Positions 30,794 through 33,800 of a DNA stretch of 64,000 bases are shown one piece after another; within the stretch, counting starts at the first letter, position 1, and every line of letters starts with the position of its first letter. A program made the translations under genes and the position numbers. Origin of the DNA: Candidatus Latescibacterota bacterium (GTDB lineage Bacteria; Latescibacterota; UBA2968); NCBI GenBank assembly GCA_965207885.1, contig OZ242311.1, forward strand, positions 3,936,001 to 4,000,000. Reading direction: 5' to 3'. The notes under the pieces are model-generated. The model was not told where the DNA came from and searched no databases. It saw only the letters and a list, made by a program, of their open reading frames with translations.

Positions 30794-30895
30794 AGAAGTA
30801 AGAAGTGAAAAGTGAAAAGTGAGAAGTCCACCCAATATCTCCCCAGGACGGATGCTTCTTCACCTTCACACTTCTACCTTCACACTTCACACTTC
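30794..30895. repeat. Inverted arrays of degenerate 7-bp repeats
   Basis: AAGTAAG AAGTGAA AAGTGAA AAGTGAG on the left; CTTCAC CTTCACA CTTCTAC CTTCACA CTTCACA on the right, overlapping the RNAP stop codon. Confidence 0.7.
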
Positions 30896-33800
30896 AACCG
30901 GTAACCCTACAAATAACCGACTATACTCATCCGTCAACGGATCGCGCTCGCCCTTTTGCGCTGCGCGGGCAAATACCACACCCGGCTTTTCCGACCTGCG
31001 CGCCCGCGCCAAAACGCCATACCCACCGGGCGCACTTTGCGTTTCCAGATCGCTCTGAATCGCCAGCATCTCCGCCAGCGCATTGGCCAACCCCCAGCGC
31101 GCACCAATCGCCCGCGCAAAAAGCTCCTCTGGCGTCAGCCCCTCCCTAAAACCGTGCTTCAGGGGCGTAAACCCACCCTGATCATTCCGCGTCACGCCCT
31201 GGGGAGCCACATAAAGTCTAACCTGCTGCCAATTGGCACGCGCACCACATTCCACCAGAAGCGCGGGAATCCCGAGATCATCGTCGTCATATCCGCGAAG
31301 CTGTGCCAACACAGCCGACACCTCATCGGGATAATCGCGCCAGACATCTGGGTCATCGCCCTCTGGCGGATCGGGCCAATCGAGCGACGAACCGATAAAC
31401 GCACTCATCGACGCCCCTGTCTTACGCGCGGCATCAAACCCTCTATCCCACAATCGCGCTGCCAGATCCAATGCAGCCTTCGCGCCATCGCGCGCCATTG
31501 CATCCGCCATCCAGTCCATCACCTGATACTTATCGACAAATAATCCCTTTCGCTCAACCTCATCGCCGACAATCTCCGCAATCTCCTGCAACCCCTCGTC
31601 CGTCATACTCATATACGCCAGGCCAAACAGCGCGTCGTGCATCGGGTGTACCTTCTCGCGTGCAATCAGACCCAGATCTCGATTCAGATGCGCCTCAGCC
31701 GACAGATGCGCTTCAGCCGACCGCTGTCCCTCTTCAGTCACCGGCACAAAAATCGCCACCTGATCGCCATCAAAATCCATATTCATCATCTTGCAAATCG
31801 CCACACACACGCGCACAGCATCGCCTTCCACGCGCACCGGACGACACGCCACAAAAGCCATTGGCGAAAACGCGGGATTGCGAAGCACCACAGTCCATAA
31901 CTCAGCCATAGCCGCATCCAGAGCTTTCTCTGCTTTTCTCGACCGCCTATCCACTTCTTCAACTCCCACCTCTCTCGCTGCAAACGGCCCAAACAACGTC
32001 CACGCCATTTCTTCGGGCACACCGACCTGATCGTATCGCAATTCCGGAGCAGGCACAGCCACCGAACGCCCGCTGAACAACGCGCGCGCCTGAAATTGCA
32101 AACGCGACAACTCGCAAAATGCGCGAACCCGCTCAGACAGCGTCTCAACCGCGCGATCCACCAATATATCTGGCGCGCCATTGGCAATCATCTCCTCCAA
32201 GCGGTCATTAGCCTCTCGCAATTCTCGGGGCACATCTCTCCCACTCACATGAGTCAACGAATGCCCCGGTAGCCACGGATGCGGAATCGAACGCGCAAGC
32301 GCGACATCCCCATCGCGTTTCAACGAAAACTCGGTGCCGCGTTCATCCAGTTCAACAGCCACCCCACCCTTCGACAAATGCCCAATTAGCTCATCAAACT
32401 GAGGGGACGGTGCATTAGGAGTAACAGGTCCCGCAACGACGCGGTCAACCAGAGTATCGGCATCATCTCGATCCACTGCGCACGTATTGAATAAATCGTC
32501 AATCACCCCAAAAGCACCTGCTTCTCGCAACGCCAAAAACTCTGTCTCACCCAACCCTTGATCGCGTTGACCCGGCTTTACACCCATGTGAATTTTATCT
32601 GCTGCCAGATGCAACGTGCGCCCCCAATATACCCACCCTACAGTGGTGCGGCGCGGCAGCGTCTCCCCATTCACCGTCAGCGTCTCCATACCATCTTCAG
32701 CCAGCCCATTAGCTCTCAAACGAGCGCGTATCTCATCGTCCTTTGGCGCATTGAGCGCGGGAATAATAACCGGCTCTCCCTCGACCTTTGCAATGCGCCC
32801 GGCCACAGATTCGCGCAACTGTCCAATATTCAACCGCGACGGCAAACCACACACACTCACAATAAGCTCCACAGGCGTGCCATCCGACAGTTTGGGCATC
32901 TGTTCATCTCGCACAATGCGCGACACCACCCCCTTAAAACCGTGTCGATTGCTCAGTTTATCGCCCGGCGCAACGCGATTGGGCAGCATCATTCGGTTCG
33001 CAGCCGATTCGCTGATCACAACTGCATCTTCGTGTGTATCACCATTCCACGCCATAAAGGCGGTCAGCAAATTGTACCCCGTCCAAAAATGCGGATCGCT
33101 CGGTTCACACCCCGTTTGCACCAGCGCGGGTTCCAACTCCAGTATTTTGCCGTCATATTGCGCGTGATACGCGTGCCACACACCCTGCTCATCGCGCTGC
33201 ATATCGGGGCTTGGCGCACCAATCCACTGCCGCATCATATTCACACCCATCAAAACGCGATTGGTGTCATTGTGTTCCAAAAACGGAACCACCGAAGCAC
33301 CTATGCCCAGCCGTTTTTCAGGCGCATCGTCTTCAATAACCAGCTTGCCATCGCGAATAGTCGCTCCCTGAGCCACCTCTAAAATCCGCGCGAGATTCGG
33401 TCCCTCGGGCGTACAATAAGGACACACGCGCCCATCGTGCGACGGATGATAGCAATTTTCTACCCCCTCATCAGCCTCACCGATAATTGGGATCAACGTC
33501 ACCCGCCGCAAATGAACGTACATATCCTGCAAATTGGTCGCCTGCAAATACTGCGATGTCGGTTCCTCCGTAAAAAATGCGTGAATCCAATCTCCCAACG
33601 GCATCCAGGTTTCAACGGCATCTCCCAGCATCTCTGGCATATTTTCCAACCGCTCGGCAATATAATCGCGCAATTGCTCTCCCACACACCGAATCTCAGC
33701 GCGCGCCAAATCCACATCAGTCGGCGCGGGAACCACCGTTCGAAAAAAGCCATCTACCTTAAACCGCCCCCAATCATCGGGCTGAGGAATATTGTTGTAC

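Follow-up and report, generated by a model that had tools for sequence, protein, structure and literature searches.

In all cellular-type RNA polymerases the trigger loop is regarded as central to both catalysis and fidelity. The closest known designs to the enzyme considered here, compared by their published descriptions, are the K2ORF6p/K2ORF7p polymerase of a yeast plasmid and YonO, a two-barrel polymerase of the B. subtilis prophage SPbeta. According to the cited part of its description, YonO lacks a trigger loop, works with the efficiency of the cellular enzyme and is more processive (PMC5467207); the same part reports it to be error-prone and without detectable hydrolysis. The yeast enzyme carries a beta::beta' fusion that was called unique among polymerases in the cited portion of a 2018 study (PMC6211774). 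Here we analyse a mini RNA polymerase gene of a Candidatus Latescibacterota bacterium (NCBI GenBank assembly GCA_965207885.1, contig OZ242311.1), located in a stretch of 64,000 nucleotides (positions 3,936,001 to 4,000,000 of the forward strand) that we call the window and to whose numbering all coordinates below refer. The gene encodes a catalytic core that is under purifying selection without a trigger loop and is tied to a sigma factor of the extracytoplasmic function (ECF) type and one promoter.

The gene is an open reading frame (ORF) of 1029 codons at 30887-33976(-), with the interval 30887-31200 as its 3' end, and the ATG at 33973 is likely its true start. The ORF list, its translation, Pfam, AlphaFold2 (AF2) and Foldseek together identify the product (P0001, 1029 aa) as a single-chain polymerase. 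Pfam finds RNA_pol_Rpb2_6 (3.7e-40, residues 335-464), RNA_pol_Rpb1_2 (2.2e-15, residues 698-755) and Rpb2_3 (1.4e-4); because Rpb2 and Rpb1 domains follow one another in one chain, the protein is a beta-then-beta' fusion, at less than half the normal combined length. The best NCBIfam models are beta/beta' fusions, rpoB and rpoC, with every score far under its curated cut-off (113.5 bits against 963.5 for rpoC_TIGR, 169.1 against 801.15 for rpoB), so the protein does not score as a canonical whole subunit. The AF2 model, built on a 61-sequence alignment, has a mean predicted local distance difference test score (pLDDT) of 92.2 and a predicted template modelling score of 0.90, with no segment below a pLDDT of 50, and Foldseek places beta and beta' chains at the top of its matches, with E values from 1e-24 to 1e-20. 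The bacterial type is favoured (1.1e-49 with the rpoB model versus 3.5e-33 with the archaeal one), and the family is unambiguously derived from the bacterial enzyme. Ordinary rpoB and rpoC are also present in this genome (6.2 Mb, one contig), 280 kb from the mini polymerase gene, as open frames of 1257 and 1363 aa.

Alignment to these and to solved subunits shows which parts of the enzyme have been kept. Residues 1-549 (32330-33976(-)) form a beta-like half with the fork, the hybrid-binding barrel and the beta C-terminus (hhalign; phmmer to solved beta chains). Against the genome's own rpoB, hhalign aligns the family's N-terminal half from the fork region to the extreme beta C-terminus (E 1.5e-71). 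No clear counterpart is seen for beta up to about residue 310, and the N-terminal lobes of beta are mostly gone; a further block of 248 residues (own rpoB 776-1023), presumably the flap, is deleted. The beta' part begins at the clamp helices, a coiled coil at residues 582-622 (32111-32233(-)) that is the canonical dock of sigma region 2 and is kept in both the alignments and the model, where helices span 584-598 and 603-620. In the profile alignment, the match begins at position 21, which corresponds to E. coli-numbered residue 267 of beta' and to residue 262 of own rpoC; with the beta' part starting there, some 260 residues at the beginning of beta' are missing. After the clamp helices, the profile comparison with solved beta' chains shows a gap of 26 residues relative to the canonical beta' loop, and we take that loop to be the rudder. 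The catalytic motif NMDFDGDQ lies at residues 732-739 (31760-31783(-)) and is conserved in the family. The funnel and switch 2 regions align to beta' (hhalign against own rpoC); the cited part of PMC2919709 proposes these two elements as common to all DNA-dependent two-barrel polymerases. Both catalytic barrels, the fork, switch 2, the funnel, the F-loop, the bridge helix and the clamp coiled coil are all retained, and the features of a two-barrel catalytic core (a three-aspartate metal site, the beta basic residues with an ED pair, and a bridge helix) are all present. The C-terminal tail of beta', which we assume to bind omega, is absent. Jaw, flap, rudder and lid are used throughout as names that we assume for these regions rather than as computed assignments.

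A first-pass annotation of the window had proposed that the trigger loop and jaw are missing, counting about 65 residues after the start of the bridge helix, and this holds up. The peptide on which the count was based occupies residues 942-964 of the ORF, and exactly 65 residues follow it to the C-terminus. The bridge helix (residues 949-980, 31037-31132(-)) is a continuous helix of 32 residues in the AF2 model, and alignment to beta' covers its first half. After it come only 49 residues, modelled as short helices at 988-994, 998-1008 and 1017-1023 before the chain ends. With the last 470 residues as a profile, the match to solved beta' chains (E 1.8e-55) falls into two stretches, one spanning E. 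coli-numbered positions 267 to ~514 (clamp helices, switch 2 and active-site barrel) and one that takes in the F-loop and runs halfway along the bridge helix, where it stops. The comparison with own rpoC (P0122) by hhalign gives the same two-stretch picture and also ends inside the bridge helix. Pfam gives no Rpb1_5 (PF04998) match in the mini polymerase at E up to 1, and the proteins of the family end at the same place, so that both elements are absent in cis. The annotation had left room for one segment near the C-terminus to act as a trigger-helix equivalent; that segment is the second half of the modelled bridge helix, and it therefore provides no stand-in.

What follows the bridge helix is a conserved C-terminal block (residues 985-1025, 30902-31024(-)), recognised from the conservation of 61 sequences and a weak rpoC alignment, which stands directly where ~500 beta' residues would be expected. 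Own rpoC carries the motif GEPGTQLTLRTFH at 902-914 and a conserved C-terminal block at 1283-1319. Nothing lies between the bridge helix of the mini polymerase and its rpoC-like C-terminal block, leaving ~500 beta' residues (trigger loop and jaw) without a counterpart; the landmarks GARWGL and VFARAA are 43 residues apart in the mini polymerase, versus 540 between their counterparts in own rpoC. The resemblance of the C-terminus to the end of beta', also suggested in that annotation, is the best local alignment found but a weak one (E 0.15 to own rpoC 1296-1319; E 0.038 to a profile of rpoC from 18 of 23 loci, the other five having been dropped as the script found no ORF or landmark in them).

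The shortened architecture is not peculiar to this genome. A word-indexed protein search, in which 8000 candidates were scored, returned 804 proteins at E up to 0.001; among the 120 best clusters, 113 are 1002-1068 aa long at 99-100% coverage and seven are shorter pieces, and all named proteins among these listed matches are annotated as hypothetical. In a HMMER search of 1.84 billion representatives, ~65 of the best 150 (50%-identity representatives) are 943-1101 aa long, and none of these 150 has a length of 1102-1947 aa. Scanning a single genome for each species turned up 218 loci, and 80 of them were carried into the analysis. By label they belong to Latescibacterota (42), Poribacteria (14), Chloroflexota (12), Armatimonadota (4), Planctomycetota (3), Gemmatimonadota (3), Hydrogenedentota (1) and a Verrucomicrobiota-type lineage (1), and the loci 88-93% identical to that of the window are labelled Latescibacterota. 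All 75 family ORFs read from these loci end no more than ~20 residues past an SRLFVG-type motif; the remaining five loci gave no single ORF above 950 aa with DFDGD and stand outside this count. Loss of the trigger loop is thus a family trait, not damage to or truncation of the copy in the window.

An alignment of 61 family sequences (40-95% identity) shows that the active site has been maintained. The catalytic aspartates are D734 (59/61), D736 (60/61) and D738 (61/61), and of the beta residues R344, K348 and D317 are found in all 61 sequences and E316 in 60. Residues 985-1025 are the most conserved C-terminal stretch, with eleven positions invariant in 61/61; the second half of the bridge helix is variable. 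With the loop deleted while the bridge helix, F-loop and active site remain under strong selection, the family offers a direct natural test of the need for the loop. In a subclade of about 11 of the 61 sequences (L038-like Latescibacterota), R699, P701, N732 and R960 are replaced by S, Q, D or E, and L, respectively, and its promoter, described below, reads GGCGTC in place of GGTGTC. Over the whole alignment residue 732 is D or E in 22/61. The substitutions at 699, 701, 732 and 960 may mark an altered substrate or sugar selection.

A mobile or viral origin was considered and set aside. We found no full-length relative in 50,697 phage records (33 partial matches, none covering 80% of the query), in 72,556 plasmid records (68 partial matches, again none covering 80%) or in IMG/VR (75 partial matches). 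The longest IMG/VR match is on contig L145 (5001-8372; query residues 334-991; 54% identity in the best segment), which may represent either a normal rpoB-rpoC junction or a different fused form. A defence role was likewise tried, and the PADLOC anti-phage defence models gave no family at E up to 1 with the mini polymerase. In the ESM Atlas the family forms clusters of 1026 aa (73 members) and 1006 aa (135 members). The same resource holds further single-chain clusters of 1221-1787 aa with Rpb2_6 and Rpb1_2, some of them also with Rpb1_5 (PF04998), which suggests that a wider, unexplored range of fused bacterial-type polymerases exists.

The constant companion of the polymerase is a sigma factor gene. 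In the window it lies at 35870-36316(-), with a likely TTG start at 36316 (36343 in the ORF caller's version), and is recognised by TIGR02937 and by Pfam Sigma70_r2 and r4_2. The window copy scores 88.6 bits with TIGR02937 and the intact copy of relative L006 scores 121 bits, against a cut-off of 42.9; with region 2 and region 4 only and a score above the curated value, the protein is an ECF (group IV) sigma factor, and its closest solved structure is RpoE. Searching with the window's neighbours by tblastn gave sigma matches in 80/80 loci, with a same-strand sigma ORF directly upstream of the polymerase in 79, and these 79 loci span eight phylum labels. The sole locus without an adjacent sigma gene (L065) has upstream, as read from the sequence, an ORF of IS200 type (Y1 transposase-like) at 4107-4538 instead. 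In 28/80 loci the sigma stop codon overlaps the first matched polymerase codon by 4 nt. A distance of 1.2-2.3 kb separates the two genes in 10 loci, all relatives of the window, and in eight of these ten tblastn finds an ABC exporter in the gap. The window carries this lineage-specific insertion at 33989-35851(-) (Pfam ABC_membrane and ABC_tran), making a three-gene operon here.

No other gene shares this association. All-against-all clustering of the 7872 ORFs of the 80 loci yielded no third conserved gene near the polymerase, with no other real cluster in more than 18 loci, and neither an element nor a gene conserved downstream of the polymerase was found in the family loci. Sigma and polymerase distances are correlated (r 0.97 overall, 0.65 for pairs below 60% identity; Mantel 0/999), which fits long co-inheritance and is expected of linked genes anyway. 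The linker between sigma2 and sigma4 is unusually conserved.

A conserved ECF-type promoter, TGAACCTTCGGGCATTGGGCGGTGTC (36339-36364(-)), was identified as a motif upstream of sigma. The bipartite motif, TGAAC-N15-G(G/T)TGTC, lies ~46 nt before the sigma start and is found in 23 of 26 deduplicated loci, compared with at most five in ten shuffles. The strict pattern stands upstream of sigma in 62/80 loci, with one other match in 1.65 Mb, and variants, GGCGTC among them, stand in most of the other loci. In the window the promoter comes just after the terminator hairpin of the preceding gene, and the whole 64 kb contains a single match even with the -10 element relaxed to GTC. Downstream, a hairpin search places an intrinsic terminator (a 14-pair stem followed by a T run) at 30760-30792(-), ~95 nt past the polymerase stop codon. 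From the promoter, the terminator and the gene order, the unit consists of promoter, sigma, (ABC exporter), polymerase and terminator. Sigma and polymerase form a two-gene module behind one conserved ECF-type promoter, and their nearly constant pairing with that promoter suggests an undescribed private transcription unit.

A wider regulon was sought in the window's own genome and in five other carrier genomes; matches stood at chance level and no target was found. The own genome has three strict-pattern matches with ~3 expected, hence no target above chance. The five other genomes have 32 matches, against nine for a reversed control, and four of the 32 are the sigma promoters. Twenty of the other 28 were fetched (none of the eight in G002), and 18 of these lie inside open frames of at least 100 aa. 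The two intergenic ones, about the number expected by chance, precede DUF262-like and carbonic-anhydrase-like genes, as read from the sequence. The former is in a Poribacteria genome (locus L092; G001:C1:3593329-3593354, -), where the pattern lies 76 nt before a DUF262/GmrSD-like gene, which is within chance.

Leaving its target aside, we lean towards reading the mini polymerase as an active, sigma-partnered enzyme that does not depend on a trigger loop. By analogy with YonO, it would be a template-dependent RNA polymerase that catalyses without the loop, and it would probably be less accurate and have no intrinsic cleavage activity. The cognate sigma would dock on the clamp helices that the enzyme has kept, and the two would make up a small holoenzyme (~115 + 22 kDa) that would read at least its own promoter. 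The first-pass annotation had reasoned from the missing loop to a possibly slow or non-processive enzyme, serving the synthesis of short RNAs, primers or signals, or RNA hydrolysis. A slow enzyme does not follow from the lost loop, because the trigger-loop-less YonO is as efficient as the cellular enzyme, and RNA hydrolysis appears to be the least likely of the proposed roles, an unlikely one on the same analogy.

The clamp helices are the main structural argument for the partnership, the coiled coil being kept in the mini polymerase although the remainder of the clamp has been lost. The sigma-less polymerase of the yeast plasmid was modelled without this coiled coil in the cited section of PMC6211774. 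A complex prediction with residues 229-1029 and sigma scored 0.40, while the best of three controls scored 0.00; at least 40% of contacts agree between runs, and the partner's pLDDT is 66-68. The result is rated weak and may reflect likeness to solved sigma-core complexes. The mark applied to this score is reached by 58 of 80 solved complexes and by 2 of 110 mismatched pairs, and it is reached with a value of 0.60 or less by only seven of the 80 solved complexes together with both of the passing mismatches.

Several observations weigh against a sigma-partnered enzyme working without a trigger element. The sigma-polymerase complex score is only weak. The 248-residue beta block missing from the mini polymerase, which we take to be the flap, is presumably the usual dock of sigma region 4, and three clamp-helix positions that we assume to be contacts of sigma70 are not conserved. 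Only one promoter copy per genome was found. Its geometry is that of an ordinary ECF promoter and the sigma, too, has an ordinary ECF appearance, so the partner of the sigma could be the host core enzyme. Positions in the core also depart from the expected residues, with N732 in 38/61 sequences (D in 11, E in 11), R699 in 49/61 and P701 in 47/61. Another weak alignment (E 0.28) pairs the region of helix 988-994 with the rpoC segment GGLPRVAELFEARRPKE at 1102-1118, and this invariant short helix (L989, R991, A992, R994) might extend to the nucleotide site and serve there as a trigger element in rudimentary form. For the other single-chain enzymes that it compares, the cited part of the P23-45 preprint (10.1101/2022.12.01.518664) describes an N-terminal trigger element that is conserved. 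Finally, the sigma gene of the window lacks 147 nt in frame, removing 49 residues of region 2, at 36265-36266(-) in comparison with three close relatives.

This deletion raises the alternative that survives best, namely that the module is decaying in this strain: sigma would have lost its core-binding helices, and the polymerase gene would be an unexpressed or functionless remnant here, irrespective of its role in other members of the family. We regard this as unlikely, if a serious contender. The deletion is strain-specific and flanked by CAAG microhomology, and its junction is carried by a 56-nt contig of the probable source sample at a depth of ~70, with flanks of 27 + 29 nt that fall below the 31-nt rule for bridging; the undeleted form is present in another DNA run and in two RNA-library runs. 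Having lost 49 residues of region 2, the module may well be impaired in this genome. Against decay, the polymerase ORF is undamaged and shares 92-95% identity with relatives whose sigma is intact, the promoter is intact as well, and the deletion is in frame and leaves region 4. RNA-library contigs of relatives at 93-94% identity cover the polymerase (X16, 30887-33654; X17, 32631-35051), a coverage that is no proof of transcription.

Slightly less probable still, in our view, is that sigma works with the host core only, as an ECF switch whose sole output is the mini polymerase, the latter then acting sigma-free on some particular kind of template, for instance single-stranded DNA, RNA or a damaged site. 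A typical ECF sigma (121 bits with TIGR02937, RpoE as the closest solved structure), a promoter with the spacing and elements of ordinary ECF promoters, a motif carried by the operon's own promoter only and a mini polymerase without the beta block that we take to be the dock of sigma region 4 all speak for this explanation. Retention of the clamp coiled coil when most of the clamp was lost speaks for direct binding instead, as does the conserved sigma2-sigma4 linker, a feature that we do not presume of ordinary ECF sigmas, and the overlapping stop and start suggest stoichiometric partners. The complex prediction (0.40 versus 0.00 for the best control) points the same way, with the weakness and possible likeness to solved complexes already noted.

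That the mini polymerase is itself a sigma-binding regulator, a decoy or an anti-sigma-like sink in which catalysis is irrelevant, seems to us very improbable. Its downstream, translationally coupled position is, we assume, typical of anti-sigma genes, no anti-sigma gene is conserved nearby in the 80 loci, and a sigma-binding coiled coil is kept. A decoy would have no need of ~1000 conserved residues, and yet the metal-binding aspartates, the beta K and R and the ED pair show little or no variation among the 61 sequences across 40-95% identity, and the fork, switch 2, F-loop and bridge helix are all retained.

The annotation's suggestion that the loop might be supplied in trans found no support. 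One candidate is the first member of a gene pair upstream of the module, encoding a 345-aa zinc-finger protein (37358-38395(-)) and a 315-aa acidic protein with no Pfam family (36421-37368(-)). The former is of DksA/TraR C4 type (2.9e-8), and it and its partner lie upstream in 18/80 loci, including those of relatives at 46-56% identity. The yeast plasmid polymerase also provides a precedent for C-terminal beta' regions on a separate small subunit, according to the part of PMC6211774 cited. Nevertheless, an unlinked or lineage-specific secondary-channel factor such as this DksA/TraR-type protein is scarcely credible as the source of trigger-loop function, since the pair occurs only in Latescibacterota loci and is absent from the other 62 of the 80, a terminator hairpin separates it from the sigma promoter, no third gene besides sigma is conserved family-wide, PF04998 is found only in the canonical rpoC of the 6.2-Mb genome, and the zinc finger lies at the extreme N-terminus, leaving no room for the coiled coil that we take to be DksA's channel insert.

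Returning to the sigma-partnered polymerase, a further step would be that the module is a self-contained second cellular transcription system: a 115-kDa polymerase without trigger loop, flap, alpha or omega, with its own ECF sigma and promoter, inherited as a two-gene cassette across at least eight phylum labels. We put this forward tentatively, as somewhat short of probable. If true, it would be the smallest known sigma-dependent RNA polymerase, and bacteria would be able to run a private polymerase beside the main one. Should the sigma partnership hold, it would also offer a minimal sigma-dependent holoenzyme suited to structural work and a possible orthogonal transcription module. A literature search, with subscription journals mostly outside its scope, found no account of a bacterial chromosomal beta::beta' mini polymerase or of an ECF sigma paired with one. 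In its main text, the ECF reclassification paper does not mention RpoB, RpoC, Rpb or any polymerase subunit; its supplements might list the group and its neighbour.

Beyond the terminator the window continues with a BlaI-type repressor gene (30275-30661(-)) and then a BlaR1 sensor (M56 peptidase) to which three TonB C-terminal domains are fused (28257-30275(-)). This pair has its own sigma70-like promoter at 30733-30705.

Among other reduced or fused enzymes, the single-chain polymerases QDE-1, gp66 of crAss-like phages and gp64 and gp96 of P23-45 share with the mini polymerase two barrels in one chain, a bridge helix and a reduced periphery, as set out in the part of the preprint cited (10.1101/2022.12.01.518664). 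They are very distant in sequence, and none is among the best 50 fold matches, all of which are bacterial or plastid beta/beta' chains. Full-length RpoB-RpoC fusions (NCBIfam NF011417 and NF007172; 5.1e-52 and 1.2e-49) likewise carry beta then beta' in one chain, but these are complete proteins of ~2840-2890 aa, and the mini polymerase, which scores 176 and 168 bits where the cut-offs are 4632 and 5372, is not a member. The non-virion polymerases of the jumbo phages AR9 and phiKZ resemble it as reduced bacterial-type enzymes without small subunits. Their specificity subunit is not known to be an ECF sigma, and they are phage-encoded and split into several polypeptides, whereas the mini polymerase is fused. 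The AR9 enzyme is described, in the cited part of PMC9209446, as a homolog of bacterial RNA polymerase that recognises its promoter by a mechanism of its own.

YonO is closer in design, being one polypeptide of ~100 kDa with two barrels and no trigger-loop homology in the section of its description cited (PMC5467207). It is phage-encoded, has few catalytic residues in common with cellular polymerases and, within that section, no reported sigma (PMC5467207). The mini polymerase, unlike YonO, is chromosomal and matches beta/beta' at E 1e-40 to 1e-55; a PHROGs search with it gave matches to beta- and beta'-like families only. The pGKL2 enzyme of yeast, formed by K2ORF6p and K2ORF7p, shares the beta::beta' fusion (~980 aa) and the shortened spacing between conserved regions (PMC2919709, part cited). 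A retained bridge helix, no detectable trigger-domain homology and a missing lid and rudder are common to both enzymes, as the cited portions of two reports describe the yeast one (PMC2919709; PMC6211774). The yeast polymerase is borne by a eukaryotic plasmid and groups with poxvirus polymerases, it was modelled without rim helices as well as without the clamp coiled coil that the mini polymerase keeps, and its C-terminal beta' regions reside on a separate subunit of 132 aa, with no sigma, in the sections of the latter report cited here (PMC6211774). The mini polymerase, in contrast, is clearly of bacterial type, has its C-terminal block fused to the bridge helix, has no conserved third gene and is accompanied by an ECF sigma; if that partnership is real, it possibly represents a new principle within the minimal two-barrel polymerases.

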